Program-made: the position numbers and the translations under genes
In this document: positions 10,259-28,495 of the stretch, piece after piece
Layout: every line of letters begins with the position of its first letter
Position numbering within the stretch: the stretch's first letter is position 1
Notes under the pieces: generated by a model
Told to the model about the DNA's origin: nothing
The model's database searches: none
The model's input: only the letters and a program-made list of their open reading frames with translations
Assembly (NCBI GenBank): GCA_034926635.1
Contig: JAYFQX010000005.1
Location: 70,220-134,219 of the forward strand
Length of the DNA: 64,000 nt
Direction: 5' to 3'
Origin: Christensenella sp.
GTDB lineage: Bacteria > Bacillota > Clostridia > Christensenellales > Christensenellaceae

Positions 10259-11515
10259 ATGAAAAAATTATCACTGGTTGCACTGGTACTCGCAGTATTG
10301 ATGCTGTTTGCGGCGTGCGGAACAGGAACGACGACGGAATCGTCTGCACCGGCGGAATCTGCAGCGGCTTCGGAGGAACCGACCAAAACGGAAGCGCCCG
10401 CAGAGTCGTCCGCTGCGGCTTCGGAAGCGACGGGAACATCGGACAACCCGAATGCTGCTGATTTTGAATATGTCACGGCAGATTATGTAAAAGACGGCGT
10501 ATTTGATATCAACACATATTACAATTCTCTTGGGGTAGACTGCAACGTTACCATTAAAGAAGACGGCGGCGTAGTAAAAGTACAAGACGACATGAAGACG
10601 TCTGTGCCTAAGGCAAAAGAAAAGTACACGATCGGTTTCTCGATTTATTACACGGTTGACGAAGTTGGCGCAGTTATTCTGGATACTATGAAAAAAGTAG
10701 CGGAAGAAGCTGGCGTGGAGTTGCTGGTCAATGACGCGAACTATGATCAAAACGCGCAGAACCAGGCTGTTGAGCAGTGGATCACGCAGGGCGTAGACGG
10801 CGTTATCATTGCACCATGCGATTTTACAGCAGTAAAAGGATCGCTGGATGCACTGGAAAAAGCCAATATCCCGGTTGTTTCCATGAACCCGCCGCTTGCA
10901 GGGACGGTTGACACAGTTGTTATGCTCGACTGTGTAGAAGAAGGTCAAATGGCTGGCGAAATGCTGATCGACGCCATCAAAGCAGAAGGCAAAGACGTAA
11001 AAGGACAGATCGTTTATGACACACTGCCTTTCGTTCATCCAAACGCGGCAACCCGTACCAAAGGCTTTAAAGATGCATTTGCTTCTTATCCGGATGTTGA
11101 ATTTGTTGAACTGACAGGGACTTCTCCGGAAGACCATTATACCGCATTTGAAGGTGCGCTGCAGGCGTATCCGGACATGATCGGTGCATGGGGGCTTTAC
11201 AGCTCGGCGACCATTGGTATGGTAAATGCGAAAAAAGCAGCAAACAGCACTGTTCCGATCTCCTCGGTTGATAACGATAAAGTTATTCTCGCGGATATCG
11301 CAGACGGATCTGTTGTTGGATCAGCGTGCTATTCCGGCGCGGCTTCCGCAACGTGGTGCATGTCTGATATCGTCAATATTTTGAATGGCGTACAGGATAT
11401 CCCTGCTGCAATTTTCTATCAGAACCAAAAAGTTACAAAAGATAACGTTGCGGAAATGTTTGCGCATTATTATCCGGGAACGACGTTAGAAGAGTACCAG
11501 AATGGGCAAGGCTAA
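10259..11515 (+). CDS. Sugar ABC transporter substrate-binding lipoprotein, paralog 2
   Basis: Lipobox LFAAC, ESSAPAESAAASE tether; extensive identity with 8921-10147 (LPFVHPNA, PEDHYTAFEGA, AWGLYSSATIGM). Confidence 0.88.
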   Translation: MKKLSLVALVLAVLMLFAACGTGTTTESSAPAESAAASEEPTKTEAPAESSAAASEATGTSDNPNAADFEYVTADYVKDGVFDINTYYNSLGVDCNVTIKEDGGVVKVQDDMKTSVPKAKEKYTIGFSIYYTVDEVGAVILDTMKKVAEEAGVELLVNDANYDQNAQNQAVEQWITQGVDGVIIAPCDFTAVKGSLDALEKANIPVVSMNPPLAGTVDTVVMLDCVEEGQMAGEMLIDAIKAEGKDVKGQIVYDTLPFVHPNAATRTKGFKDAFASYPDVEFVELTGTSPEDHYTAFEGALQAYPDMIGAWGLYSSATIGMVNAKKAANSTVPISSVDNDKVILADIADGSVVGSACYSGAASATWCMSDIVNILNGVQDIPAAIFYQNQKVTKDNVAEMFAHYYPGTTLEEYQNGQG

Positions 11516-11559
11516 TATAACAGTAATAAAAAAATTCGTGATTTGAAAGAGGTAAAAAA

Positions 11560-12234
11560 ATGAGTAATGTAGCGCCTGAGTTGATCGTTATGCTGACACA
11601 CCATGACAAAACAGTGGAAAATGCGATCGAAGTATTCGAAGGGGCAAAAGATGCACCCGCCAAATATTGGGGTTTTAAAGAAGTTGGGCTTCCTATTCCC
11701 GATATGAAAATATTGGTGAAAAAGATGAAAGACGCAGGAAAAAAGACATGCTTGGAGATCGTGGATTACACGGAAGAAGGCTGTCTTGCCGGAGCAAAGA
11801 TCGGTGTGGAATGCGGATTCGACATCGTGATGGGGACGTTGTATTTCGACTCTGTGAGAGACCTGCTTATAGAGAACAACGTGGAATACATGCCTTTTGT
11901 TGGGAAGCTTTCCGGTCGCCCGAGCGTTCTTGATGGCACGATCGAAGAGATCATTGCCGAAGCGCAGTATTTGGTGAAGGAGAAAGGCATCAAGGGCTTC
12001 GACCTTCTTGGATACCGCTACGTGGGAGATGCTGTAAAGCTCAATAACGAGTTTGTGAAGAATGCCGGCGTGCCGGTATGCCTCGCGGGCAGTGTACAGA
12101 GTTATCAGCGCCTTGACGAAGTAAAAGCAACAGGCGCATGGGCATTTACCATTGGCGGAGCGTTCTTTGAGAATAAATTCGACGGAACGTTTGCAGAACA
12201 GATCACAAAAGTTGTAGAGTATATGAAACGCTAA
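11560..12234 (+). CDS. Uncharacterised protein, probable ribulose-phosphate-binding TIM barrel
   Basis: Alternating beta/alpha pattern, GFKEVG, and a C-terminal LAGSV...TIGGAF phosphate-binding-like segment; function not recognised. Confidence 0.6.
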   Translation: MSNVAPELIVMLTHHDKTVENAIEVFEGAKDAPAKYWGFKEVGLPIPDMKILVKKMKDAGKKTCLEIVDYTEEGCLAGAKIGVECGFDIVMGTLYFDSVRDLLIENNVEYMPFVGKLSGRPSVLDGTIEEIIAEAQYLVKEKGIKGFDLLGYRYVGDAVKLNNEFVKNAGVPVCLAGSVQSYQRLDEVKATGAWAFTIGGAFFENKFDGTFAEQITKVVEYMKR

Positions 12235-14521: not shown

Positions 14522-17500
14522 ATGCCAAAATTCAGCGTGAAAAAGCCCATGACAATTTTTGTAATCGTAATCCTGGTGTGTCTTTTAGGATTTATTTCCG
14601 TGACCAGTATGACAACGGATCTGCTTCCCAAGATGGATTTACCTTATGTGGCTGTTTTTACCACATATCCGGGGGCAAGCCCCGAGAAAATCGAGCAAGC
14701 AGTCACAAAGCCGTTGGAGCAGACTCTTTCCACAACCAGCGGAGTGAAGAATGTCACCAGTATTTCAAACGAAAACACCAGCGTAGTGATTTTGGAGTTT
14801 ACGCAGGACACAAACATGGACAGTGTGATGATTGAGATGAGCGGCAGCATCGATATGGTGAAGGCCAGTCTCGACGATGCGGTAGGAACGCCTACGCTGA
14901 TCAAAATCAACCCGGATTTGATGCCTGTGATGGTGGCAAGCGTGGATATGGACGGCGGAGAAATCGGAGAAACCTCGCAGCTTGTGCAGGATACGGTGTT
15001 GCCCGCGTTTGAGCGGATCGACGGGGTAGCCTCCGTGACTGCAACAGGGATCGTGGAAGATTCCATCGAGGTGACACTCAGTCAAACCAAGATAGATGAA
15101 CTTAACCGTCGGGTACTCGCTTCCGTGGACGAGCAGCTTGCGGAGGCGCAGGAGAAGCTGGACGCGGCAAAAGAGGAGATCACCGACGGCAAGCAGCAGA
15201 TTTCCGAAATGGGGAAAACGCAGGCGGCAAAGCTTGTGGATGCGGGCTTGCAATTATCGGCAGGACGCGACCAGATCGAGGCTGCGATTTCGAGCCTGCC
15301 CGCTATGCAGCAGGAGCTTCAGGCGCAGCTTACTGATTTGCAGGCGCAGAAGACAGCGCTGGAAACGCAGCTTGCGGACGCCAAGACAGCGCGCGACAGC
15401 TTGCAGCAGACCATTGCGGGATTGGTTGCGGCGGGGCAGCCCGTACCGGAGGAACTAACGACACAGCTTGCAACGCTGGAACAGAGTATTCCACAAATGG
15501 AAGCGGGATTGACGCAGCTTACGGACGGCATCACGCAGATCGAGGCGGGGATCGCGCAGATTCCGGTGCAAAAAGAACAGTTGGAACAAAAACTCGCGGA
15601 ATTAGGCGAAAGCGAAAAACAACTGGAGACAGGGAAGATAACGCTTTCTACAGAACTGGCGCAAGCATCAGGGCAACTGGCAGGCGGTGAAGCGCAGCTT
15701 CAGCAAAGCGAAGAAGAGTTTGAGAAACAAAAAGATGCAGCATACCAGCAAGCAGGATTGGACGATAAAATCACGCAGGATACAATTAGCCAAATTCTTG
15801 CGGCGCAGAATTTTTCTATGCCTGCCGGATATATTAAGGATGGCACGGAGAAATATCTGGTGAAGGTGGGCGACCAAATTGGTGATATGGGCGAGCTGGA
15901 ACACCTTGTGTTGTTTGACATCAGCGCGGGCGATATCGGAAAAGTTACGCTCTCGGATGTCGCAGATATCAAAATGACGGATAACCGCGATGAATTATAT
16001 GCGAAAATTAACGGGAACGACGGCATCCTGCTTTCGTTCCAGAAGCAAAGTACGTCTTCTACCACGGATGTATCGTCCAAAATCAATGAAGCAATCAAAA
16101 AACTGGAGACTGATCATCCGGGGATGCACATTGTTGCACTTTCTGATCAGGGGGTATATATCAATATCGTGCTGGACTCGGTGCTCAACAATCTGCTTCT
16201 GGGCGCTGTACTTGCCATCATTATCCTGTTCTTGTTTTTAAAGGATATTAAGCCCACGATCATTGTTGCAATCAGTATTCCGTTCAGTTTGCTTGCGGCC
16301 ATTACCTTGATGTATTTCTGTGGGGTCACCCTTAACGTGATTTCTCTTGCGGGACTTGCGCTCGGCGTAGGGATGTTGGTGGACAACAGCATTGTAGTAA
16401 TCGAAAACATTTATCGGCTGCGCTCCATGGGGGTTTCTGCGGCGCGCGCTGCGGTCAAGGGGGCGACGCAGGTTGCGGGCGCGATCTTTGCTTCTACGCT
16501 GACGACGGTATGTGTATTTTTGCCGATCGTATTCACGCAAGGGCTGACGCGCCAGCTTTTTGCGGATATGGGACTGACGATTGCGTTTTCCCTTTTGTCC
16601 AGCCTTGTGATCGCGCTGACACTGGTACCGGCGATGGGCTCCACCATGCTGCGAAAGGTAAAAGAGAAAAAGCATCAAGGCTTTGACAAGTTCACGGCAG
16701 CGTATCAGAAAACCCTGCGCGCAGGGCTTAAGCATAAATGGGTGATATTTGTGATCGCAATCGGTCTGTTCGCGTTTAGTGCGGTAAGTATTTTGGGCAT
16801 GGGGACATCGCTTATTCCTAAAATGGATAGTACGGAAATGATGATCACCATGGAAATGCCTGCGGGAAGCAGCACGCAGGAAACGCGGGATATGAGCGAC
16901 GTCATTTTGGAACGTCTGACTGCGTTGCCGGATGTGGAAACCATCGGTGCAATGGAAGGAGGCGTGACATCGCTTATGGGGGGCTCGGCTTCGGGCTCCA
17001 ACAACACATCCATTATGATGTATGCGATTTTAAAAGATGAGAAGCAGCACACCAGCGCGCAGGTGGCGGAAATGATGCGCGAAGAAGTAAAAGACCTGCC
17101 CTGCACGGTGGAAGTCAACGATTCCACGATGGATCTCTCTATGCTTTCCGGGTCGGGGCTGGAAGTGGCGGTTCGTGGGGACGACCTTGATACACTGAAG
17201 CAAATTGCGCAGGAGGTCGCGGACCGCATGGCGCAGACAGAAGGGCTTACCAATATTGACAACGGAATGAAAGATGCTTCAGATGAGACACGGATCAGCG
17301 TGGATAAAAACAAAGCAGCGGTATATGGTCTGACTGTTGCACAGGTCTATCAGCAGATTTCCGCGGAGCTGGCCTCGGGCAAGACAGCCACGACCCTCGC
17401 ACTGCAGGCGGGCGATTATCCTGTGGTTGTACAAAACAGCCCGGAAAACAGCGCAAGTCTGGCGGGTCTGCCAGATTTTGCCATAACCGGAACAAAAGAT

Positions 17501-18277
17501 GGGGAAGAAACAGAAGTAAAACTTTCGGAAATTGCGGAAATCAGCACGGAAAAGGGATTATCCGCGATCAACCATGACGGGCAGGTTCGGACCTTGACCG
17601 TCACGGCGGATGTGGATGCAAATCATAATATTGGGCTTGTAAGCCGCGATTTTTCCCAAAAGCTGCAGGACTATCAGGTCCCCGACGGTTATACGGTGGA
17701 AATCCAGGGAGAAAACCAAACGATCACAGATACGTTTACGAACCTCATTTATATGTTCCTGCTGGCGGTGGTGCTGATTTATCTGATTATGGTAGCACAG
17801 TTCCAGTCGCTGAAATCACCTTTCATTATTTTGTTCACGATTCCATTGGCGTTTACCGGTGGGCTTTTGGCATTGCTGCTCACGGGCTCGGATCTTTCTA
17901 TGATTGCGCTGCTTGGCTTCCTGCTTTTGGCGGGCATCGTGGTGAACAACGGGATCGTGTTTGTGGATTATGTCAACCAGCTCCGCCTGTCCGGTGTAGA
18001 ACGGCGTGAAGCGCTTATCAGGACAGGAGGCGCGCGAATCCGCCCGATCTTGATGACGGCGTTTACCACAATCCTTGGGCTTGTTCCCTTGGCGCTCGGC
18101 ATGGGGCAGGGCGCAGAAATGCTTCAGCCTATGGCGATCGTCACCATCGGCGGTCTTGTTTATGCGACGTTTATGACACTGTTTTTTGTGCCTGCGCTGT
18201 ATGACGTCATGAATAAAAAAGAAATGAAGCAGGTTATGATAGAAGACGAAGAGGAGGATTCCATTGACGCAATATAA
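14522..18277 (+). CDS. AcrB/AcrD/AcrF family RND transporter with long coiled-coil insertion
   Basis: GMLVDNSIVVIENI, GIVVNNGIV, RIRPILMT motifs; Gln/Leu/Glu heptad segment at about aa 195-410. Confidence 0.92.
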   Translation: MPKFSVKKPMTIFVIVILVCLLGFISVTSMTTDLLPKMDLPYVAVFTTYPGASPEKIEQAVTKPLEQTLSTTSGVKNVTSISNENTSVVILEFTQDTNMDSVMIEMSGSIDMVKASLDDAVGTPTLIKINPDLMPVMVASVDMDGGEIGETSQLVQDTVLPAFERIDGVASVTATGIVEDSIEVTLSQTKIDELNRRVLASVDEQLAEAQEKLDAAKEEITDGKQQISEMGKTQAAKLVDAGLQLSAGRDQIEAAISSLPAMQQELQAQLTDLQAQKTALETQLADAKTARDSLQQTIAGLVAAGQPVPEELTTQLATLEQSIPQMEAGLTQLTDGITQIEAGIAQIPVQKEQLEQKLAELGESEKQLETGKITLSTELAQASGQLAGGEAQLQQSEEEFEKQKDAAYQQAGLDDKITQDTISQILAAQNFSMPAGYIKDGTEKYLVKVGDQIGDMGELEHLVLFDISAGDIGKVTLSDVADIKMTDNRDELYAKINGNDGILLSFQKQSTSSTTDVSSKINEAIKKLETDHPGMHIVALSDQGVYINIVLDSVLNNLLLGAVLAIIILFLFLKDIKPTIIVAISIPFSLLAAITLMYFCGVTLNVISLAGLALGVGMLVDNSIVVIENIYRLRSMGVSAARAAVKGATQVAGAIFASTLTTVCVFLPIVFTQGLTRQLFADMGLTIAFSLLSSLVIALTLVPAMGSTMLRKVKEKKHQGFDKFTAAYQKTLRAGLKHKWVIFVIAIGLFAFSAVSILGMGTSLIPKMDSTEMMITMEMPAGSSTQETRDMSDVILERLTALPDVETIGAMEGGVTSLMGGSASGSNNTSIMMYAILKDEKQHTSAQVAEMMREEVKDLPCTVEVNDSTMDLSMLSGSGLEVAVRGDDLDTLKQIAQEVADRMAQTEGLTNIDNGMKDASDETRISVDKNKAAVYGLTVAQVYQQISAELASGKTATTLALQAGDYPVVVQNSPENSASLAGLPDFAITGTKDGEETEVKLSEIAEISTEKGLSAINHDGQVRTLTVTADVDANHNIGLVSRDFSQKLQDYQVPDGYTVEIQGENQTITDTFTNLIYMFLLAVVLIYLIMVAQFQSLKSPFIILFTIPLAFTGGLLALLLTGSDLSMIALLGFLLLAGIVVNNGIVFVDYVNQLRLSGVERREALIRTGGARIRPILMTAFTTILGLVPLALGMGQGAEMLQPMAIVTIGGLVYATFMTLFFVPALYDVMNKKEMKQVMIEDEEEDSIDAI

Positions 18278-18866
18278 GGAAAAGGAATTAAAGATTATGC
18301 GCGCGCTCCTTGGCCTGCTGAAAGACGGCTGTGCGCTTTATGAAATCAAGGCCTCGGATATCGCCCAAAAAGCCGGAATCGGCAAAGGCACGCTATATAA
18401 TTATTTTGAATCGAAGGAAGACATCATTGCAAAAACCGTGGAATACAGCCTTGATACAACGATCCGCTCAGAGATCGCGAGGCTTGCGGAACTCCCCGGG
18501 TTCCGTGAGAAATGTTATGCGATCCTTGGCGATGTGGACGATATTATTCATAATGAAAGCTCAGATTTCCATTTGCTGTTATTTAACGTCGGAGGAAGGG
18601 AAATGAGCGGGTATTGCGGCTGTAATCCCGGAATGATTCAAAAATATTTGCGCGTTATCTTTGATCACACGATCTCCATTGCGCGTGTTGCGGTTGAGGA
18701 GGGCTGTATTCCTCCGTTTGAGGATGAGGAATATGTTTACAGTGCGTTTGCTTCCGCGTTGATGGGATTTGTGCATGCGCGCTGCCGTATGCAGGGCGTA
18801 TCCGAAGCAGAAATAGGACGCGCAAAAGACAATGCATGGAAGTTTTTGTTAAAAGCGCTGCATTAA
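18264..18866 (+). CDS. TetR/AcrR family regulator
   Basis: IAQKAGIGKGTLYNYFESKEDI HTH; TTG start behind GAGGAGG, overlapping the RND stop. Confidence 0.92.
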   Translation: MTQYKEKELKIMRALLGLLKDGCALYEIKASDIAQKAGIGKGTLYNYFESKEDIIAKTVEYSLDTTIRSEIARLAELPGFREKCYAILGDVDDIIHNESSDFHLLLFNVGGREMSGYCGCNPGMIQKYLRVIFDHTISIARVAVEEGCIPPFEDEEYVYSAFASALMGFVHARCRMQGVSEAEIGRAKDNAWKFLLKALH

Positions 18867-18931
18867 AAGGCTCCGGCGCAAAATACGCCGAAGCCAATAT
18901 GTTTTTTGTATCACGCCGTGCTGCCTGCCCG

Positions 18932-19588
18932 TTAAAGCAGATGGGTTAATTCCCTCATCGAACGGATGACAAAAGTAGGTTGGTAATCCTGCGCGACCTT
19001 TAGCGGATCGGGCATCCAGGAAATATCCGCCACTGCAAGGCAAGAATCGCATTGCAGGTCTTTTGCGATTTCTACATCGCGCGCCGCGTCCCCGACATAG
19101 AGCGCGTTGCCGGACGGGCATAACTCGCGCAGCGCATCCGCGCATCGGTTTTCTTTGCCGGATTCCGTTGGGGTAGCGCCTTTGATAGAAGCAAAATACG
19201 GCGTCAGCCCGTGCAGCTGCATGATCCGCTGCGCCAGCGGATGCAGAGAGTTGGTGACAAGACTCAGGCAGTATCCCCGCTGCTTCATGGTTTCCAGCAT
19301 TTCTTGCGTGCCGTCAGCCAGGGGAATATCGCGGATGAGATCGTCTACCTCGTGCTTATAAAAAACTTCCAGTTTTTGGTACAATTCTTCCCGATCTTCC
19401 TGCGGGACTCCAAGCACGCCGAACATTTCTTCTATGGTGTTGCCAAGTCCTTCGAGCGTATCGTGCATTTGAACCGGGATGTTGTAGGTTTTAAAAAAAC
19501 GTTTGTAAGCTAAAACGTGGAACCGGGCAGAATCAATGATGGTTCCGTCCATGTCAAACATGAGAAGGTCATATTGTCGCATAGTCAT
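18932..19588 (-). CDS. HAD family hydrolase (phosphoglycolate phosphatase-like)
   Basis: FDMDGTIIDS, VTNS, YVGDAARD motifs; exact start uncertain (19582/19588/19600). Confidence 0.88.
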   Translation of the reverse strand: MTMRQYDLLMFDMDGTIIDSARFHVLAYKRFFKTYNIPVQMHDTLEGLGNTIEEMFGVLGVPQEDREELYQKLEVFYKHEVDDLIRDIPLADGTQEMLETMKQRGYCLSLVTNSLHPLAQRIMQLHGLTPYFASIKGATPTESGKENRCADALRELCPSGNALYVGDAARDVEIAKDLQCDSCLAVADISWMPDPLKVAQDYQPTFVIRSMRELTHLL

Positions 19589-19759
19589 TTGCCTGCGCAT
19601 AAGGCGAATTTTGTTTTTACAAGCTTATGCGCACCTGCTTACTATTATACCATAAGAACCCTTGATTTGCAGGGGATTTTAGGGTATTATGCCGAAAAAC
19701 AAGCATTTTTATTAAAATACAACTGTATTTCACCGTTTCATGATCAATTGGATGAAATA

Positions 19760-20242
19760 TTATTTGATGATACGCCACTTACCTACGACAGGTAGTTCTT
19801 TCATCTCTCCTTTTAGCGCGTTGATAATACCAATGATGGCCAGCACGGCAATCAAGATACTGACAATGGTAGAAAGGATCGACACGATCCCCCATGCGCC
19901 CCATGCACCCAGTGAAAACGGGTTCCATAAAACAGCGTTGCTGATGATAGAAAACACGATAATATCGATCAGCCAAAGAATGAATACATTAAAGCCTTGT
20001 ACTGCATGAAAATGTGCAAATTTGGAATCCTTGGCCGCAACAAGCGGGATAAAAAACAGGCAAAAGCAATAGGCAAGTACGGCCACCAGCTTATTGTTTT
20101 GAGCGTCTTGTTGTACGCTTGTGCCGGACGGCGCTTTGTTTGAATCGGCCGCCGTGGACTGCGCGCCCACGGGACTTCCGCATGTCGGGCAAAAACGCGT
20201 ACTTTCATCAAATTGCGTTCCACAGTTTTTACAAGTAATCAT
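19760..20242 (-). CDS. Zinc-ribbon plus DUF4870/Tic20-like membrane protein
   Basis: CKNCG...CPTCG, polar linker, then LVAVLAY...FHAVQG and three hydrophobic helices. Confidence 0.8.
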   Translation of the reverse strand: MITCKNCGTQFDESTRFCPTCGSPVGAQSTAADSNKAPSGTSVQQDAQNNKLVAVLAYCFCLFFIPLVAAKDSKFAHFHAVQGFNVFILWLIDIIVFSIISNAVLWNPFSLGAWGAWGIVSILSTIVSILIAVLAIIGIINALKGEMKELPVVGKWRIIK

Positions 20243-20309
20243 AATTTTTTCCCTCTTTTCAGTCATTGGTTTGAGAGTGTGCAACATGGCGCGCCGCGCC
20301 GCAAGTTTT

Positions 20310-21062
20310 TTACAGTTTTGTTCCGCATTCTCCGCAGAATTTCATGCCGGGCTCTACCTCCGCGCCGCATGCCGGGCATTTTTGGGGCAGCGCGGTATTC
20401 ATAGGTGTTCCGCATTCATTGCAAAATTTTATTCCCAGCGCAACTTTTGCGCCGCATGCCGGGCATACCTGCATTGCCATGGGCGCGCCGCAGTTGTTAC
20501 AGAATTTGCCGTTCCCGGCGGGTTTGCCACATACGGGGCAAACGGTGGTTTTGCTTTCAAGTTCTCCTTTCCAGACGATAGCTGTGTCCGCGAGATCGTC
20601 AATGTTTTTCTTCATTGCGGTCGCGCGTGCTTTTGCGACATAGACTTCTTGACGCGGCGCACATTCTACACACAAGCCTTCGTCTTCGTTATAATCCGCA
20701 TCGCATACCCATTTTTGGCAGCCGTGACAGCGGTGAAAATGTTGTTTTGCTTCGTTCTGCGCCATTTCAAAAGCACGCTGGTGTTCCTTTTGCCATTCCG
20801 GGCTGCGTTCTTCAAACCGTTCGGATAAAATGTCGCCACCGCGCTCGGCAGCCCAGCCGACACTGCTTGCTTGCCCGCCAAATAGACTACCTAAAATTCC
20901 GGCACCTGCGGAAAGCCCGCGCATCCCCTTCTTTTTTTTATAAGTTTGCGATTCGATAAAGGATGTTTTATATCCATCCTGACAGATATCACAGTAAAAC
21001 GTAAATTGAAAGCCTGCTTCCGTAGAGTTGTCTTCATAGTTTCTTGTGAATGATTTTAGCAT
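20310..21062 (-). CDS. Cys-rich protein: novel Zn-finger domain with Gly-rich insert plus three zinc ribbons
   Basis: 19 Cys; CDIC, CHGC-WVC, CVEC then CPVC/CNNC, CPAC/CNEC, CPAC/CGEC; GGAGG RBS. Confidence 0.82.
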   Translation of the reverse strand: MLKSFTRNYEDNSTEAGFQFTFYCDICQDGYKTSFIESQTYKKKKGMRGLSAGAGILGSLFGGQASSVGWAAERGGDILSERFEERSPEWQKEHQRAFEMAQNEAKQHFHRCHGCQKWVCDADYNEDEGLCVECAPRQEVYVAKARATAMKKNIDDLADTAIVWKGELESKTTVCPVCGKPAGNGKFCNNCGAPMAMQVCPACGAKVALGIKFCNECGTPMNTALPQKCPACGAEVEPGMKFCGECGTKL

Positions 21063-21073
21063 GCTGTTCCCTC

Positions 21074-21415
21074 CTATTTTCCGATTTTTGTTTTTATTTT
21101 TTTCCCGCATGCGGTACAGTATTCATTTTCAAAAAATTGTTCCTGTCCGCACCGTTTGTTACTGCATTTCACCATCAAACTGCGTCCGCATGCCTCGCAC
21201 CGATCCCCGACAAAGGTTTTTGCGCCGCAAAAAGGGCATGAGATAAAGAGTGGTCTGCCACAGCCTGCGCAGCACGCGTCGGTTTTGCTGATTTCACGCA
21301 GGCAGGTAGGACAGTGGTATCCAAAGGGGCTTCGGCTGCCGCATTTTGGACAAAAAAGCGCGTCGCGGTCAATCAGTGTTCCGCAATGGATGCATGGTTG
21401 CCGATAGGTACTCAT
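21074..21415 (-). CDS. Quadruple zinc-ribbon protein
   Basis: 17 Cys in 113 aa arranged as eight CxxC-type pairs; GGAGG RBS. Confidence 0.82.
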   Translation of the reverse strand: MSTYRQPCIHCGTLIDRDALFCPKCGSRSPFGYHCPTCLREISKTDACCAGCGRPLFISCPFCGAKTFVGDRCEACGRSLMVKCSNKRCGQEQFFENEYCTACGKKIKTKIGK

Positions 21416-21419
21416 AAAA

Positions 21420-21902
21420 TTATTCCTCCTGTAAGCGGTTGCCGCACTCTCCGCAGAATCGGGTTCCGGGAGGGTTGCTTGCGCCGCAAGCCGGGCAGTT
21501 GAGACTTGTGGATACGCCCAGACGTGTCCCGCATTCTTGGCAGAATTTTATGCCGTCCGGGTTTTCTATTCCGCAAGCCGGGCAGGTGCGCAAGGCTTTT
21601 GCCTGCTGTTCCTCTTGTTCCTGAGCCCGCTGCTCTGCACTTGCCGCAGACAACCGGGATTCCGCCTGCTTTTGATTTTCCTGCACGAGCCGCAGTCTGG
21701 CGGAGATTTCAGGAAAGCCTTCGTCTCCGTAGGTCGTCAGCGCATTTTTCCCGATTTCCGCATATAATTCCATCTCTTGTTTTTTGAGATCCTCCAACTC
21801 TGATTGCGCGTTAAAAACCTTGACTGCGGGATCGTTTTGCGGCATTAGACCCGAGAATCCTTTCATCAAACCGCCAAGACCTCCAAAAAAATCGTTACTC
21901 AA
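21420..21902 (-). CDS. Coiled-coil plus double zinc-ribbon protein
   Basis: Gly-rich amphipathic N-terminus, ELEDLKKQEMELYAEIG coiled coil, CPAC/CQEC and CPAC/CGEC; TTG start behind AAGGAGG. Confidence 0.82.
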   Translation of the reverse strand: MSNDFFGGLGGLMKGFSGLMPQNDPAVKVFNAQSELEDLKKQEMELYAEIGKNALTTYGDEGFPEISARLRLVQENQKQAESRLSAASAEQRAQEQEEQQAKALRTCPACGIENPDGIKFCQECGTRLGVSTSLNCPACGASNPPGTRFCGECGNRLQEE

Positions 21903-21918
21903 AGCTTGATCCTCCTTT

Positions 21919-22173
21919 TTACCGTTTTTCGGCGCACTTTATACACAGCATCACATCTTCCCGGTAGTCGTGGTCGCATACCCAGCGTCCGCATAATCTG
22001 CATCGGTTAAAATAGCGGCGTGCTTCTTTTTGTGCAATGTCGAGCGCTTCTTCGTAGGAAGCCGATACCACCAGGGGCGTCTGATACTTTTTGCCGCAAA
22101 CATCACAGAAAAATGCAAAAGAAAATCCGTGCACCGTACCATATGATCTATAATTCTTTGTAAAAACCTTCAT
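21919..22173 (-). CDS. Stand-alone Zn-finger domain protein, paralog of the N-terminal domain of 20310-21062
   Basis: FTKNY..GFSFAFFCDVC...AQKEA..FNRCRLCGRWVCDHDY..LCIKCA; start re-called to ATG 22173 behind GGAGG. Confidence 0.78.
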   Translation of the reverse strand: MKVFTKNYRSYGTVHGFSFAFFCDVCGKKYQTPLVVSASYEEALDIAQKEARRYFNRCRLCGRWVCDHDYREDVMLCIKCAEKR

Positions 22174-22303
22174 CTTGCCCTCCGCCCGGATCATCCCGGT
22201 CAAGACACGAAAGGAAAACCTCCAGCCTAAGAAGATCGTCTTCACCCAGCGTACGTATCTCTTTAAGCAGGAAGGCGAGCAGCTCGTCCCGGCTCTGGTC
22301 CAT
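22148..22303 (-). CDS. Unannotated 51-aa protein resembling the C-terminal helices of the XRE regulator at 25661 (SinI-like candidate)
   Basis: Translated by hand: MDQSRDELLAFLLKEIRTLGEDDLLRLEVFLSCLDRDDPGGGQDEGFYKEL; RBS AAAGGGGAG 7 nt upstream; overlaps the next gene by 26 nt; below the track's 60-aa cutoff. Confidence 0.72.
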   Translation of the reverse strand: MDQSRDELLAFLLKEIRTLGEDDLLRLEVFLSCLDRDDPGGGQDEGFYKEL

Positions 22304-22458
22304 AGATATCTCCCCTTTCGGCAATACTAAAAATTATATGGACTAAGTTAGATGTTTTCGATACAATGAATGGGAATGGAAGAATGATTTCCGACAGTAT
22401 CGTTTGGATGATGACGGTTACTGCCTACTGCTACCATAGCAATTTATTTGTTTTTTGT

Positions 22459-22477
22459 AATCACCCCGAGGGTGATT
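22459..22477. promoter_or_regulatory. Inverted repeat in the divergent promoter region, candidate regulator site
   Basis: AATCACCC-CGA-GGGTGATT. Confidence 0.45.
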
Positions 22478-22556
22478 TTTCAGGAAATAGCTTCGATTTT
22501 TATCAAATGCCCTGTGGGAAGCAGCCGGAATTCATTTTGCCGGGAGGGGAAAATCA

Positions 22557-23963
22557 ATGAAGAAAAAGATGATATGTATTGCTGTCTGCGTACTTATTTG
22601 TTGTACGGCGCTGCTGGGGTGTACGGCGGGACCTCTTGATCCGGGTAACCCGGTGACTGTTACGCTGTGGCACAACTATGGCGGACAGATGAAGACAACC
22701 ATGGATGAACTTGTGGATGAATTCAATAGCACGGTTGGTCATGAAAAGGGGATTATATTAAGTGTGACGTCAATATCCAGCTCTGCCACGCTGCAGGAAA
22801 AACTGGATATGGCTGCCAACGGAGACCCGGGTGCGCCGGCGTTGCCTGATATTACCACCTGTTATCCCAAGACCGCGCTTAACCTGAAAGAAAACGAGCA
22901 GCTCTGTGATTTGTCAGATCAATTTACAGAGGAAGAGCTTTCGGCATACGTACCCAGGTTTTTGGAGGAGGGTACGATTGACGGAGATCTGTATGTATTC
23001 CCGATTGCAAAATCAACAGAAGTTTTATTTGTAAACCAAACATTGTTTGACCGATTTGCGGCAGAAAGCGGCGTTACATTGGAAGACCTTTCCACATTTG
23101 AAGGGATTGCGGATGCAGCGCGGAAGTATTATGACTGGACCGACGCAAAAACGCCGGAGGTTCCGCTGGATGGAAAGGCTTTTTATGCGGCGGATTCGCT
23201 GTTTAATCTGGCGCAGGTAGGGATGGAGCAAATAGGGGAATCGCTTTTGTCCGGACAATCGCTGGATTTATCGACGGAAGGATACCGGCGAATCTGGGAT
23301 TTTTATTTTGACCCGGCTGTAGCCGGCGGGGCCGCAATTTATGATGGCTATTCTTCCGATCTTTCCAAAACAGGCGATATTGTCTGCTCGACAGGCTCGA
23401 CGGCGGGAATCCTGTTTTATGGTGACGAAATAACATACCCTGACAATATCACGGAAAAAGTGGAATATACGGTATTGCCATACCCTGTATTTGAGGGCGG
23501 GGAAAAAATAGCGATCCAGCGCGGCGGCGGTATGTGCGTTACCAGCTCGACTCCGGAAAAAGAATATGCGGCGGCGGTATTCCTGAAATGGTTTACAGCG
23601 CCGGAGCAGAATATGAAATTTGTTTCTTCTACCGGTTATCTTCCGGTTACGCAGGAGGCTTTTGATAATATTCTGGAAGAAGAAATGGATGCAATAGAAA
23701 ACAGAAATATTCAAAAACTTTTGATGGCGGCAGCAACCATGCAGCGTGAATATGATTTTTATATCCCGCCTACATTTGCAGGATTTGACGAAATAGGCGA
23801 TGCTTACGAAGAAGGGCTGAGAGCGAAAGTTAAGACCGCGCAGGCCGGTTATAAAGCGGCGGTTTTATCCGGAGAGGCGCCGGAAGCTGCGTTTGAAAAG
23901 GCGGCGGACGGAGCACAGGCTTCTTTTACAGAAGGATTTTTGAACACAGCGGTAAGGAAGTAA
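22557..23963 (+). CDS. Extracellular solute-binding lipoprotein (family 1) with no adjacent permease
   Basis: Lipobox ALLGC; TLWHNY, PIAKSTEVLFVN, AAVFLKWFT, TGYLPV motifs. Confidence 0.88.
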   Translation: MKKKMICIAVCVLICCTALLGCTAGPLDPGNPVTVTLWHNYGGQMKTTMDELVDEFNSTVGHEKGIILSVTSISSSATLQEKLDMAANGDPGAPALPDITTCYPKTALNLKENEQLCDLSDQFTEEELSAYVPRFLEEGTIDGDLYVFPIAKSTEVLFVNQTLFDRFAAESGVTLEDLSTFEGIADAARKYYDWTDAKTPEVPLDGKAFYAADSLFNLAQVGMEQIGESLLSGQSLDLSTEGYRRIWDFYFDPAVAGGAAIYDGYSSDLSKTGDIVCSTGSTAGILFYGDEITYPDNITEKVEYTVLPYPVFEGGEKIAIQRGGGMCVTSSTPEKEYAAAVFLKWFTAPEQNMKFVSSTGYLPVTQEAFDNILEEEMDAIENRNIQKLLMAAATMQREYDFYIPPTFAGFDEIGDAYEEGLRAKVKTAQAGYKAAVLSGEAPEAAFEKAADGAQASFTEGFLNTAVRK

Positions 23964-24010
23964 TCCGCGTCCGGTCATAAAAAAAATCGGCGTAAGGAAA
24001 GGCGGCTTTC

Positions 24011-25648
24011 TTGAGCAAGGAAAAAAAACTGTTTCGGCAATTGAAAGAGGGATGGATAAAGACAGGAAAAAACGGAGCGTCCATGCAGCTTCGTCTGTTC
24101 TGTTTCTTTACGCTGCTTGTTGTGACGGTGGTGCTCGGGGTACTTGCCGTTTTGTTTGCGACGGGTATTTTTTCTGCCGGAAGTCGTGAAACCAAAACCA
24201 TCCTGCAAGGAGAAATAACGCATCTTTCCCAGAATGCCGCAGAACAGTTTGGTAATCTTTCTATCCAAAGCGTTGCACTGTCGCAAGAAATATCCAATAG
24301 TATGGAAGCATATATAAAGACGCTGGGGCTCACTCCGGAGGAAATTGCGCATAACCCCGAGGCGCTGGAGGCGTTGTTGGGGAGCCAGTTTGACAGGATG
24401 ACGGGGGCGCTTGAATCGGTAAAGAGCAGCGGGGTATTTCTGATTTTGGACGCCACAATAAATCCGGAGGCTGAAAATGCCGAAAATTCGCGCGCCGGGT
24501 TATTTATAAAAAATATGGAGCCAAACATCCTGAATGCTTCTGCGCCGAATATTTTGATGATCCGCGGACCTGTTGCGATTGCGCGGGAAAACGGGTATAA
24601 TATTCATTCTCAGTGGAAGATGGAATTTGATACTGAGGGAGCCGATTATTATACGTTGCCGATGCAGGCGGCCCGGGAAACAAAGTTACAGCTCTCACGT
24701 CTATATTACTGGTGCCCAAATGTACGACTGCCGGAAACCAATGAAACCATCATGCTTTGCAGCGTGCCTTTGATTGCGTCCGATGGAACGGTGTTTGGTG
24801 TTTGTGGGTTTGAAGTGAGCGAGATGCTGTTTAAACTGGCGAATATGCCGGATAATTCGACTTATACCCGTATTTTTTGTATGATTTCACCCGTGGAGGG
24901 AAACCGGCTGAATACGCAAAACGCGCTGCTGGCGGGGAACTATTCTGCGCTGCCCCATGACGGCGCGGCAAGAGAACTGTTGGCGCGTCCGGGGGAAGAT
25001 TCGTTCGACCGCTTTGAATGGGACGGAGAAACGCTTTATGCGGGGATGTACACGCCGTTGCAGATGTATCCGCGCGGCTCAGCGTTTGAAAACTGCGGAT
25101 GGGCGTTTTCGCTGATGATGCCGGAGCAGGATCTATTAGAAGTGGTTTCTCTGCAAAGAAACTATTTGATTTTGTTCTTACTGCTGCTGATGGCAGGAGG
25201 CGTTGCGGCGGTGCTGCTTGTCAGTAAAAAAGTATTACGTCCCATGATGGATGCTTTGGAAACGTTGAAGACGAAAGGACCGTCGGGGCTTACAAAGACG
25301 CACATTCTGGAAATCGATGATTTTATCGCGTTTTTATCCGCGCAAGATGATGCGTCAAAACAACCGGGGGAAAAGACGACCCCGCAGCAGCACGGTTTTT
25401 CTAAGTACGAGGAATTTGTGAAAAATATTGAAACGCTTTCGCCCGCGGAGCGTGCTGTTTTTAATCTTTATATGAAGGGGTATACGGCGAAGGAGATCGC
25501 GGAAATCCTATGTTTGAGTATTAATACGATCAAGACGCATAATAAGCGTATTTATATGAAGTTAAACGTGACGTCACGCAAAGAATTGATGGTTTACGTA
25601 GATATGATGGCAGAGTCGCGCGGGATGCCGCGGCGTGAAGAAAAATAG
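24011..25648 (+). CDS. Membrane-anchored one-component regulator: TM-extracellular sensor-TM-LuxR HTH
   Basis: Two hydrophobic helices flanking about 330 aa; C-terminal LSPAERAVF...GYTAKEIAEILCLSINTIKTHNKRIYMKLNV; alternative start ATG 24083. Confidence 0.85.
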   Translation: MSKEKKLFRQLKEGWIKTGKNGASMQLRLFCFFTLLVVTVVLGVLAVLFATGIFSAGSRETKTILQGEITHLSQNAAEQFGNLSIQSVALSQEISNSMEAYIKTLGLTPEEIAHNPEALEALLGSQFDRMTGALESVKSSGVFLILDATINPEAENAENSRAGLFIKNMEPNILNASAPNILMIRGPVAIARENGYNIHSQWKMEFDTEGADYYTLPMQAARETKLQLSRLYYWCPNVRLPETNETIMLCSVPLIASDGTVFGVCGFEVSEMLFKLANMPDNSTYTRIFCMISPVEGNRLNTQNALLAGNYSALPHDGAARELLARPGEDSFDRFEWDGETLYAGMYTPLQMYPRGSAFENCGWAFSLMMPEQDLLEVVSLQRNYLILFLLLLMAGGVAAVLLVSKKVLRPMMDALETLKTKGPSGLTKTHILEIDDFIAFLSAQDDASKQPGEKTTPQQHGFSKYEEFVKNIETLSPAERAVFNLYMKGYTAKEIAEILCLSINTIKTHNKRIYMKLNVTSRKELMVYVDMMAESRGMPRREEK

Positions 25649-25660
25649 GCGGGAGAATGG

Positions 25661-25993
25661 ATGGACACCTTAGCAGACAGAATCAAACAGATCCTCGCGG
25701 AACAAAACTTAAAACAGGCGGAATTTGCGCGGGCATTGGGGATCAGCGCCAACTATGTGTATTTGCTTACAAGCGGAAAAAAGAAAGCAATTTCAAAGAC
25801 GCTTTCTCGGTTGATTGAGACGTTCTATGGATATCAAGCGGGCTGGGTGCGCGGCGAACCCGGTATGGAAGGCGTTGCCAGAGTCAGCAGCCTTCGGCGG
25901 CGGACGTCTGAACAGATTTGTCGTCTTGCGCCGGAAGATCTTAAAAAAGTAGCAGCATTTTTGCATACGCTTGATCAGCGAAAAAAGAACTAA
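25661..25993 (+). CDS. XRE family HTH regulator with short C-terminal helical domain
   Basis: RIKQILAEQNLKQAEFARALGISANYV HTH; GGGAG RBS. Confidence 0.88.
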   Translation: MDTLADRIKQILAEQNLKQAEFARALGISANYVYLLTSGKKKAISKTLSRLIETFYGYQAGWVRGEPGMEGVARVSSLRRRTSEQICRLAPEDLKKVAAFLHTLDQRKKN

Positions 25994-26084
25994 AAAAAGA
26001 GCGAAAAAAGCAGGCGTTTTTTAGAAGAAAACAGCCTGTTTTTGCCGCTCAGGCAAAGTTTTTGTAAAATATGATCGGATTCAT

Positions 26085-26114: not shown

Positions 26115-26167
26115 GCGCATATTTTCAATGATAGGGAGTGGGTAACGGTCCTTTTGGACAGGAGGAA

Positions 26168-28495
26168 ATGATGGAGCTATTAAACAGGACGGAAGAAATC
26201 GTGCGGCAGGATATGCGCAAGGAGCTGTGCGAGGTTAACGCAGAGGAATTGCAGGAAGCGATTGCCAAAGCGGTGTTAGAATCAATTTCTTTAGAATGGA
26301 AGAAAACGCGTGGAGAAAAAACGCGCAAAGCATATTATTTTTCTGCAGAATACCTGATTGGAAGAATGGTATTTCATAACCTGTATGCCCTTGGATGGCT
26401 AAAAGAGGCGAGGGAACAATTTTTAGCGCGCGGCGTAGACCTTTCGAAAATGGAAGAGATCGAAGATGCGGCGATCGGCAACGGCGGACTTGGACGCCTT
26501 GCGGCTTGTTTTTTGGATTCTGCGGCGACAATGGGACTGCCGCTTAATGGTTATGGAATTAAGTATAAAAACGGGCTTTTTCGCCAGAAGATCAGCGATG
26601 GATTTCAGGTAGAAGAAGCGGATGACTGGAACAGCGACAGAGATCCATGGTTTGTTCGCAGCGAGCAGGACAGCGTGACTGTGCACTATCGCGGACAAGA
26701 AGTGATTGCGGTGCCATATGATATGCCGGTGATCGGATATAAATCCGGGGAAGTCAATACGCTCAGGCTGTGGCAGGCAGAAGCCGGGAAAGAATTTGAT
26801 TTTGCACGGTTTAACGCAGGCGATTACGCCGGTGCGGTAGAAGAAAAGAACAATGCAGAAATGATTACCCGGGTGCTCTATCCAAATGATAGTGCGCCGG
26901 AAGGAAAACGGCTGCGTCTGAAGCAGGAGTACTTCTTTTCCAGCGCATCGCTTCAGGATCTGCTGCGGCGGTTTGAAAAAGAATATGGCAGTGATTTCGG
27001 CGAATTCGCAAAATATCATGCAATCCAGCTTAACGATACGCACCCGGTGGTTGCGATCCCAGAACTCATCCGTCTTTTGATGCAGAAGGGGATGGAGTTT
27101 GAAGACGCTTTTGCAGTCGCACGGGAGACTTTTTCCTACACCAACCACACGATTATGGCAGAAGCGCTGGAGACATGGGATATTGGGCTATTCCGGGATT
27201 TGCTTCCGGAGGTTTATGATATTATCGTATTGTTAAACGACAGGCTGCTTATGGAGCTTGATGGCAGAAATCAGGCAGAGCTGGAGATTTTGCATGACGG
27301 GTCAATCCAGATGGCGAGGCTGGCGGTCTATGCGTCGTCTTGCGTGAATGGCGTAGCGGAGATCCATACGGAATTGCTCAAGCAAAATGTTTTGCATGAT
27401 TGGTATGCGTGGTTTCCCGAGAGGTTTCAAAACAAGACGAACGGCGTCACGCAGCGGCGGTGGCTGGGCCTTTGCGATCCGGAGCTTGCACGGCTAATCT
27501 CCGGCAAAATCGGCTGGGATTGGCTGAAAGATTTTTCGCAGATCCAAAATATTGAGCCGTATATTGCAGACGACGCATTTGTACGTGATTTTTTGCAAGT
27601 GAAAAAAATCCGTAAAGAAAAGCTTGCCGATTACATTTATAAGCGTGATAAGACGGCTGTGCGCGCGGATTCGGTTTTTGACATCCAGATCAAACGTCTG
27701 CATGAATATAAACGGCAGCTTTTAAACGCGTTTTCCATTGTGGATATTTATTTTCGGATCAAAGACGGAGAACTTGTGGATTTTCCGCGTATGACGTTTG
27801 TATTTGGCTCGAAGGCTGCGCCGGGATATTATGTTGCAAAAGGGATTATTAAATATATCAATGAAATCAGCCGGGTGATTGCGGCAGATGATCAGGTGAA
27901 CGAAATTTTGCAGGTGGTGTTTGCTTCCAATTACGATGTATCGTATGCACAGAAGCTTGTTCCGGCGGCAAATATTTCCGAGCAGATCTCTACGGCAGGA
28001 ACCGAGGCGTCCGGCACAGGCAATATGAAGTTTATGATGAACGGTGCGGTGACGCTGGGCACGTATGACGGGGCAAATGTGGAAATTGTCCGGCAGGCCG
28101 GAGAAGAGAACAATTATATTTTTGGCGCACGAGTGGAAGACTTACAGCGCATTGGCGGCAGTTATCGTCCGATGGAAATTTATGAAAAAGACGCACGAAT
28201 CCGCAGGGTGGTGGATACGCTGATAGACGGTACTTTTTCTGACGGCGGGACAGGAATGTTTGGTGTGATTTATGACCAGCTTTTGCATGGCGGAAACGGA
28301 CAGGAAGCCGACCACTATAAGGTGCTGCTGGATTTTGGAGATTATATGTGTCAAAAACTGCGCGCGATCTATGATACAAAGGATGAAATGATGTTTGGAC
28401 GCAAGTGCCTTTATAACATCGCCAGAAGCGGCATGTTTTCCAGTGATCGCACGGTTGCGGAATATGCACGGGATATCTGGCATATCGAAAAATAA
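26168..28495 (+). CDS. glgP: Glycogen/starch/maltodextrin phosphorylase
   Basis: GNGGLGRLAACF, QLNDTHP, NKTNGVT, IKRLHEYKRQ, EASGTGNMKF; start ATG 26168 (GGAGG) or GTG 26138. Confidence 0.95.
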   Translation: MMELLNRTEEIVRQDMRKELCEVNAEELQEAIAKAVLESISLEWKKTRGEKTRKAYYFSAEYLIGRMVFHNLYALGWLKEAREQFLARGVDLSKMEEIEDAAIGNGGLGRLAACFLDSAATMGLPLNGYGIKYKNGLFRQKISDGFQVEEADDWNSDRDPWFVRSEQDSVTVHYRGQEVIAVPYDMPVIGYKSGEVNTLRLWQAEAGKEFDFARFNAGDYAGAVEEKNNAEMITRVLYPNDSAPEGKRLRLKQEYFFSSASLQDLLRRFEKEYGSDFGEFAKYHAIQLNDTHPVVAIPELIRLLMQKGMEFEDAFAVARETFSYTNHTIMAEALETWDIGLFRDLLPEVYDIIVLLNDRLLMELDGRNQAELEILHDGSIQMARLAVYASSCVNGVAEIHTELLKQNVLHDWYAWFPERFQNKTNGVTQRRWLGLCDPELARLISGKIGWDWLKDFSQIQNIEPYIADDAFVRDFLQVKKIRKEKLADYIYKRDKTAVRADSVFDIQIKRLHEYKRQLLNAFSIVDIYFRIKDGELVDFPRMTFVFGSKAAPGYYVAKGIIKYINEISRVIAADDQVNEILQVVFASNYDVSYAQKLVPAANISEQISTAGTEASGTGNMKFMMNGAVTLGTYDGANVEIVRQAGEENNYIFGARVEDLQRIGGSYRPMEIYEKDARIRRVVDTLIDGTFSDGGTGMFGVIYDQLLHGGNGQEADHYKVLLDFGDYMCQKLRAIYDTKDEMMFGRKCLYNIARSGMFSSDRTVAEYARDIWHIEK

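Follow-up and report, generated by a model that had tools for sequence, protein, structure and literature searches.

A zinc-ribbon gene cluster of Christensenella with a divergent sensor operon and a putative repressor/anti-repressor pair

Nine intact open reading frames (ORFs) lie at positions 19760-25993 of the 64,000-nucleotide (nt) stretch of Christensenella sp. contig JAYFQX010000005.1 that was analyzed here (hereafter the window). They are arranged as two divergent operons (Table 1). The minus-strand operon has six genes, termed G1 to G6, of which G2 to G6 encode zinc-ribbon proteins. The plus-strand operon starts with a gene for a solute-binding protein (SBP) of the lipoprotein type, followed by the genes for a LuxR-type transmembrane (TM) regulator and an XRE-family helix-turn-helix (HTH) protein; the gene after these is GlgP. 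The nine genes up to and including the XRE gene probably constitute one self-regulated accessory module that was acquired horizontally. An earlier sequence-only reading of this DNA had described six tightly linked genes, each with a ribosome-binding site, facing a divergent trio of SBP lipoprotein, TM LuxR regulator and XRE protein, and this arrangement is borne out. The ORF listing and the minus-strand reading give gaps of -26, 16, 4, 11 and 67 nt between the co-directional genes, and each of the six is preceded by a purine-rich Shine-Dalgarno sequence.

The proteins G1 to G6 are unusually rich in cysteine, as the same reading had noted; its tally of about 55 cysteines in about 770 residues needs correction to 58 cysteines in 818 residues (7.1%), with ~13 predicted Cys4-type sites. 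Ribbons of the CxxC...CxxC type number one in G2, two in G3, four in G4, three in G5 and one in G6, in addition to the split finger of G5. The Pfam models matched above threshold are Zn_Ribbon_1, DZR and DUF7577 only, all of them in G3 to G6, and each of these four proteins exceeds the gathering threshold for the zinc-ribbon families (Zn_Ribbon_1/DZR). Searches of the six proteins against Pfam and NCBIfam yielded zinc-ribbon models only, in agreement with the former statement that no catalytic domain is recognizable, and searches of all nine proteins confirmed that a PspA or SPFH gene is missing from the locus.

Table 1. Genes and sequence features of the zinc-ribbon and sensor operons (positions in the window)
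Feature	Position	Strand	Description
G1	22148-22303	-	51 aa; candidate anti-repressor
G2	21919-22173	-	84 aa; stand-alone copy of the G5 N-terminal two-zinc domain
G3	21420-21902	-	160 aa, TTG start; N-terminal motif, coiled-coil region, 2 zinc ribbons
G4	21074-21415	-	113 aa; four zinc ribbons
G5	20310-21062	-	250 aa; core protein: split two-zinc domain, helix, 3 zinc ribbons
G6	19760-20242	-	160 aa; N-terminal zinc ribbon and 3-segment membrane domain (HOTT/DUF4870-like)
SBP_bac_8 lipoprotein	22557-23963	+	lipobox LLGC; Pfam 101 bits
LuxR/GerE two-TM one-component regulator	24011-25648	+	GerE 56.7 bits
XRE-family HTH protein	25661-25993	+	HTH_3 34.1 bits; G1-like helical C-terminal domain
Predicted sigma-70-type promoter TCGAAA-17-TATAAT, zinc-ribbon operon	22333-22361	-	consensus scan, 10/12 matches
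Motif TCTAACTTAGTC, candidate XRE operator	22341-22352	-	in the promoter spacer
Palindrome AATCACCC-N3-GGGTGATT, candidate LuxR operator	22459-22477		SBP-to-G1 intergenic region
GC-rich hairpin in the G5-G6 gap (67 nt)	20287-20301	.	sense strand without U-tract; terminator-like on the + strand only
Terminator-like hairpin closing the sensor operon	26040-26058	+	

The N-terminal two-zinc domain of G5 is interrupted by a glycine-rich insert, and G2 is paralogous to this N-terminal part, the two halves being 46% and 40% identical. Alignment of the G5 family revealed eight conserved ligand positions (C24/C27, C112/C115, C120, C/D123 and C131/C134), which are invariant except for position 123, where either Cys or Asp occurs. 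The N-terminal 170 residues share 55-84% identity across families, and the mean column identity of the N-domain is 71%. In both paralogues of the window the sixth zinc-ligand position is occupied by Asp (CDHD in G2 and CDAD in G5); in most homologues it is His in the G2 family and Cys in the G5 family. The AlphaFold2 model of G5, with a mean predicted local distance difference test score (pLDDT) of 71, consists of a structured two-zinc domain, a disordered glycine-rich loop (the insert, residues 45-80), a long helix and three flexible ribbons. The two-zinc domain has neither a Pfam model nor a structural match, and a profile search of the PDB with G5 returned ribbons only.

The only Pfam match of G2 is a sub-threshold one to Prok-RING_2 (PF14445), at 20.8 bits against a cut-off of 22.4. 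Sub-threshold matches to this model occur in four of 11 members of the G2 family and cover profile positions 23-48 only. The G2 profile recovers 596 clusters at the 50% identity level, in which the G2/G5N domain stands alone, is combined with ribbons or forms the cytoplasmic head of proteins that cross the membrane once; among its fusions, only TM segments with Ig-like tails and extra ribbons were found. A fusion to HisKA (P0161) was rejected, as it looks like an assembly chimera joined within the H-box. Among the remaining proteins, G3 has the conserved N-terminal motif DLFGGLGGLMKGLSGFMPQDDP followed by the helical coiled-coil region and its ribbons, G4 matches DZR with 54.6 bits over four stretches, and G6 matches Zn_Ribbon_1 with 25.2 bits and has hydrophobic segments at residues 49-73, 78-109 and 111-147. 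A motif common to the glycine-rich N-terminus of G3 and the insert of G5 was also considered and rejected (hhalign Prob 2%), the likeness being compositional only.

The SBP is most similar in structure to sugar and glycerol-3-phosphate binding proteins. No gene for an ABC permease or ATPase stands beside it, and the same layout is found in Eubacterium callanderi. The LuxR-type regulator has two TM segments (approximately residues 22-59 and 383-409) that flank an extracellular domain of ~320 residues without a Pfam model, and its cytoplasmic part ends with a GerE HTH (PF00196; residues 475-529; 56.7 bits against a cut-off of 23.5). Neither a receiver (REC) nor an autoinducer-binding domain was detected in this protein. 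The sensor region was searched against 401 genomes of the order, which revealed 12 close relatives, eleven at E < 1e-76 plus one in genome G177. Nine of these 12 adjoin G5 and/or G2; the other three comprise a remnant, a gene at the end of a contig and the gene of G342, beside which there are no zinc-ribbon genes. The link from the sensor to the operon is thus almost obligate; in the reverse direction it is optional.

Cassettes of SBP and LuxR at greater distance (24-29% identity), often with an XRE gene, face other envelope or surface operons. In genome G047 (L122:514-5191), an SBP/TM-LuxR/XRE cassette faces a YdjGHI/SamGHI-like operon without pspA, which would be placed under one-component control. 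This operon encodes a DUF5067 lipoprotein, a Band_7_1 (SPFH) protein with a zinc ribbon, a 365-residue zinc-ribbon protein and a TPM-domain protein. Other distant cassettes face Flg_new or SpaA-type surface proteins with lipoproteins, or a G2-like protein together with a two-ribbon protein. Remoter homologues of the sensor domain reside in proteins of ~1,000 residues that have GGDEF-EAL as output, and an SBP_bac_8 gene of its own precedes each of them. Since this pairing recurs with GGDEF-EAL, the SBP and the sensor domain appear to form a reusable input module with either LuxR or cyclic di-GMP output, which supports the SBP as a co-sensor; the suggestion in the sequence-only reading that the SBP takes part in sensing is therefore plausible. 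Two genomes of the same genus, G004 and G006, carry such a pair, in which a transporter-less SBP_bac_8 gene immediately precedes that of a membrane protein of ~1,000 residues, whose N-terminal domain is a homologue of the window's LuxR sensor and whose output is GGDEF-EAL (L128:2719-7180 and L129:2307-6812).

G1 residues 6-41 align to XRE residues 76-111, the last 36 residues of that family (hhalign Prob 93%, E 3.5e-7). A small ORF abutting G2 is kept in six other loci (L024, L031, L032, L043, L044 and L064). In L024, L031 and L032 the LuxR gene is followed by an XRE orthologue, and in a fourth locus by a truncated remnant. G1 matches no Pfam family at E <= 0.1, the XRE protein matches HTH models only, and SinI was not matched. 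The pair recalls SinR/SinI and SlrR/SlrA of Bacillus, which likewise combine an XRE-type repressor that has a C-terminal helical domain with a small homologue of that domain. As no Pfam SinI match exists, this likeness is one of functional analogy and not of family membership. Unlike SinI, G1 opens its own putative target operon, an arrangement that implies positive feedback.

The intergenic region between the SBP gene and G1 contains two kinds of operator-like motif. The palindrome AATCACCC-N3-GGGTGATT, which is kept across families, has a single exact copy in the window, against 0.02 expected, and the 2.36-Mb genome contains no second one. Within 3 mismatches, it occurs in the equivalent intergenic region of ten loci, corresponding to eight distinct species loci and the window (L098-L100 were counted as one locus); elsewhere, the same criterion gives three matches in 1.36 Mb. 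Locus L025 has the palindrome with a longer spacer, and in most loci two direct AAAATCACCC repeats precede it. The distant cassettes of SBP and LuxR have a related but distinct inverted repeat, TTCCCACCC...GGGTGGGGAC. We assign the palindrome to the HTH of the LuxR protein, as a putative operator, because it co-varies with the LuxR paralogue whether or not an XRE gene is present. The second motif, TCTAACTTAGTC, lies within the spacer of the predicted zinc-ribbon promoter and may serve as the operator of the XRE protein. Its full form is restricted to loci that also have G1, namely the window, L024, L031, L032 and L064, and the motif TCTAACTWAGTC is likewise present only where G1 is present. 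The antirepressor feedback loop that had been suggested earlier fits the homology of G1 to the XRE C-terminus.

The distribution of the block points to gain and loss as a unit. Full-length G5 is absent from the 13 same-genus genomes searched, and 11 other genomes of the same family lack a match over the full length (best E 2.6e-12). Two other families of the order do have G5, at 69% identity. In the same-genus genomes G007 and G004, GlgP, RND, TetR and HAD genes are contiguous with none of the nine genes between them. The flanking genes of the window are not repeated beside G5 at other loci, stray matches excepted. Because same-genus genomes with the flanks lack the block and the flanks do not recur, we delimit the island to 19760-25993, gained or lost whole. 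Co-conservation of the two divergent operons, the check that the sequence-only reading had called for, is supported. In the window (14522-19600 and 26138-28495), the RND-TetR-HAD block is inverted relative to GlgP in comparison with two same-genus genomes; the island occupies the new junction, so that rearrangement and insertion coincide, and no gene for an integrase was seen within it.

Relatives of G5 were found at 251 species-level genome loci, and grouping at 90% identity gives at least 1,489 clusters for the family, annotated solely as "zinc ribbon domain-containing protein" or "hypothetical". The hosts are mostly Clostridia of gut, rumen and digesters, with some Coriobacteriia; for the few G5-bearing metagenome-assembled genomes (MAGs) that are assigned to archaea or Dehalococcoidales, mis-binning of contigs is the probable explanation. 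Synteny was counted over 80 loci and over subsets defined by the available flanking length; gene calls in the related loci are heuristic (ORFs plus tblastn), and many of these loci come from MAGs. A G4 homologue stands immediately 5' of G5 in 42 of the 80 loci, and a G3 homologue upstream of G5 in 30. Of the 49 species loci for which 6.5 kb or more of upstream sequence is available, 10 have the divergent pair of SBP and TM-LuxR genes; the pair also faces the zinc-ribbon operon in genomes G036 and G034 and in E. callanderi. Both a stand-alone G2 (Fisher p = 8.6e-7, with sensor/SBP) and a DUF4870/G6 protein (Fisher p = 4e-6) co-vary with the sensor, and a G6 homologue or a stand-alone DUF4870 protein occurs in eight of the ten sensor-bearing loci. 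The window is a sensor-equipped sub-architecture of the wider G5 family, and the nine-gene form is one variant only. A 308-residue metagenomic protein (P0135) joins G1-like, G2-like and G3-like segments in one frame; it may be a natural fusion or a calling artefact, and either way it confirms the order G1-G2-G3 elsewhere.

The commonest partner of G5 in sister loci is a protein of 310-480 residues without a Pfam model, termed C1, which was seen at L019:5051-6283 and 41 other loci and lies downstream of G5 in 37 of the 67 loci whose sequence extends 2 kb or more on that side. In its confident AlphaFold2 model (pLDDT 91.5), tandem PH domains resembling those of BBS5, Rtt106 and Pob3 precede a C-terminal alpha/beta domain without a match. 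A zinc ribbon closes the chain in some copies of C1. In addition, related loci contribute lipoproteins, Flg_new surface proteins and an HtrA-like protease that combines a TM segment with zinc ribbons. The gene of one HtrA-like trypsin protease lies between C1 and a G6 homologue in genome G036 (L016, reverse complement, 10473-12227), and its product, a further envelope protein with such ribbons, has a signal peptide and a single TM segment, and its C-terminal part carries two zinc ribbons on the cytoplasmic side.

We found no published description of this cluster in the literature; several known systems resemble it in part. XylFII-LytS/YesN of Clostridium beijerinckii is an SBP-dependent membrane sensor, and there, too, a transporter-less SBP gene lies beside the membrane sensor that it would feed. 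Here, however, the sensor is a one-component TM-LuxR protein with no kinase or receiver domain. In Bacillus subtilis, the membrane protein YdjG, which has cytoplasmic zinc ribbons, acts together with YdjH to recruit PspA and the soluble YdjI, which has a C-terminal zinc ribbon (PMC8581546, PMC11237479, PMC13713150). The pspA-ydjGHI (samGHI) system is also non-enzymatic, and the counterpart of its membrane zinc-ribbon protein would be G6, with a zinc ribbon and three hydrophobic segments. Nevertheless, G6 would be HOTT/DUF4870-like, compared to a YpeB/NTF2-like membrane protein in the Bacillus system, and control there is by sigma-W, as opposed to the SBP/LuxR/XRE cassette here. Moreover, none of the nine proteins has a PspA, SPFH (Band_7_1) or TPM domain by Pfam and NCBIfam, in contrast to locus L122, where TPM is present. 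The module of the window is not a member of the YdjGHI/SamGHI type, nor of any defence system in PADLOC. The analogy to Psp-like modules drawn by the sequence-only reading is nevertheless backed indirectly by the paralogous sensor cassette of G047, which faces a YdjGHI-like operon with SPFH, TPM and zinc-ribbon proteins.

The cytoplasmic zinc ribbons of GltJ and ZitP act as protein-protein interaction modules or as a switch (PMC11135422, PMC5182063). In ZitP of Caulobacter and GltJ of Myxococcus, a cytoplasmic Cys4 ribbon is followed by a TM segment, similar to G6. They nonetheless belong to other phyla and have other partners (PopZ and MglB) and other membrane or extracellular parts; the sequence comparison covered the Pfam-type ribbon that they share with G6. 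The membrane part of G6 matches the HOTT/DUF4870-Tic20-MamF superfamily weakly, and G6 adds an N-terminal zinc ribbon to it. The HOTT/DUF4870 family is described as uncharacterised (PMC11628618); stand-alone DUF4870 proteins of sister loci do exceed the Pfam cut-off, one homologue in locus L035 reaching 37.1 bits. A PADLOC scan gave no match for G1, G2, G4, G5, G6 or C1, a chance-level Cas10 match only for G3 (E 0.008), and generic HTH models only for the regulators.

From the observed gene anatomy, co-conservation, motif conservation and homology between G1 and the XRE protein, we infer a working model, in which the protein-motif assignments, the ligand, the assembly and the physiological role are proposals. 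The SBP lipoprotein would bind an extracellular solute, probably sugar-like, and pass the signal to the LuxR-type regulator via the latter's extracellular domain; the cytoplasmic GerE HTH of this two-TM protein would in turn bind the palindrome in the divergent intergenic region. The XRE protein would repress the zinc-ribbon promoter, probably via the TCTAACTTAGTC motif in its spacer, and G1, which copies only the C-terminal helices of XRE, may pair with it and inactivate it in a SinI-like manner, giving positive feedback. The proteins G2 to G5, predicted to be cytoplasmic, could then assemble through their ribbons, with G6 tethering the assembly to the membrane. In this way an inducible scaffold or adaptor would arise at the inner membrane face, with an envelope or surface-lifestyle role and by a logic that resembles the recruitment of YdjI by YdjG and YdjH. 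We favor a non-enzymatic assembly at the membrane face because of the membrane segments of G6, the envelope proteins of sister loci, the YdjGHI-like target of the related cassette, the G2 domain as cytoplasmic head of membrane proteins, the published interaction role of the ribbons of GltJ and ZitP and the published recruitment by YdjG and YdjH. The regulatory half of the model appears well supported by the sequence comparisons, and we hold it with higher confidence than the model as a whole, in which sensor, switch and zinc-ribbon scaffold are combined and for which our judgement is evenly balanced. The scaffold half, that is, a ribbon-mediated and membrane-tethered assembly, is a tentative proposal that we would sooner expect to fail than to hold.

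Several observations weigh against this model. The center of the palindrome lies ~140 nt upstream of the predicted zinc-ribbon promoter and ~80 nt upstream of the SBP start; being nearer to the SBP gene, it may mainly autoregulate the sensor operon. About 80% of the G5 loci lack the sensor, and the effector is thus independent of it. C1 is absent from the genome of the window, and this version of the module may accordingly be partial. The match of G6 to DUF4870 (PF09685) scores 22.9 bits, below the cut-off of 25, and its match to Tic20 is weak as well. A Foldseek search of the G5 model against the PDB found nothing below E 0.4 and only generic 25-residue ribbons, and the glycine-rich insert of G5 was rejected as a TM segment (maximum Kyte-Doolittle value 1.03). 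The position of the palindrome and the many sensor-free loci, together with the close SBP-LuxR pair of G342 that stands apart from zinc-ribbon genes, would also suit an explanation in which the SBP and LuxR proteins control only themselves or an unlinked sugar regulon and their adjacency to the operon reflects co-transfer in one island. We give this little credence: nine of the 12 closest LuxR relatives, from several families, adjoin the operon, the divergent layout and the motifs are kept while the flanking genes differ, and the lack of a second exact palindrome copy in the genome argues against a distant regulon.

Other explanations concern the zinc-ribbon proteins themselves. Zinc ribbons of this type are found in ribosomal proteins and RNA polymerase subunits, the sole PDB and Foldseek matches are the ribbons of L32, L40e, Rpb12 and NrdR, and most G5 loci have no membrane protein, all of which would suit proteins that bind nucleic acid or regulate transcription, translation or the ribosome, with G6 as a separate add-on. 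However, these matches span ~25 residues of generic ribbon at E near 1, a basic or HTH region is absent, and the recurrent partners are membrane, lipoprotein or PH-domain proteins, which makes this role improbable in our view. The high cysteine content with its many Cys4-type sites and the absence of a catalytic domain could instead indicate an inducible zinc or thiol buffer or sensor that stores zinc or responds to oxidants. This has a slim chance, as the island has no Zur, Fur or PerR-type regulator and no metal transporter, the sensor looks like a sugar-type one, and the strong non-Cys conservation in the N-domain of G5 suggests a specific protein interface, not bulk metal binding. An anti-phage or abortive-infection module, whose glycine-rich segments would damage the membrane once triggered, is highly improbable. 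The patchy, horizontal-transfer-like phyletic distribution, the island-like gain and the glycine-rich segments in G5 and G3 would be compatible with it, and the XRE protein with its small partner recalls some defence regulators, with a weak capH match. Nevertheless, no PADLOC model is matched beyond chance among the six proteins or C1, nuclease, NTPase and other effector domains are absent, the flanking genes are housekeeping genes and not a defence island, and a sensor of extracellular solutes would be an odd trigger for phage defence.

Compared to these explanations, the sensor-controlled membrane-face scaffold remains our preferred reading. Its parts are of known kinds, i.e. zinc ribbons, a one-component regulator and a SinI/SinR-like switch; their combination, the G2/G5N domain and C1 are undescribed, and the effector may prove categorically new. 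We consider it unlikely that G2 to G6, with C1 elsewhere, form a new machine built on a Tic20-like (HOTT) protein that remodels the membrane or handles envelope proteins upon an external glycan signal; if true, that machine would give a first function to the HOTT family and to the very common zinc-ribbon TM proteins of Firmicutes. In Firmicutes, zinc-ribbon proteins that stand alone or are anchored in the membrane are very common and, to our knowledge, almost all unexplained. In this cluster, a sensor of its own, a candidate operator, a candidate repressor/anti-repressor pair and few partners make up a defined, self-contained case, and the cluster is also present in a cultured organism with a complete genome, E. 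callanderi. The function of the effector, if solved, would annotate the at least 1,489 protein clusters of gut, rumen and digester Clostridia and might also explain the HOTT/DUF4870 family. The input of SBP and sensor domain, for its part, appears reusable with LuxR or GGDEF-EAL outputs.

Two hairpins accompany the operons (Table 1). The one in the G5-G6 gap may act as an attenuator or stabilizer, and might uncouple the level of G6 from that of G1 to G5.

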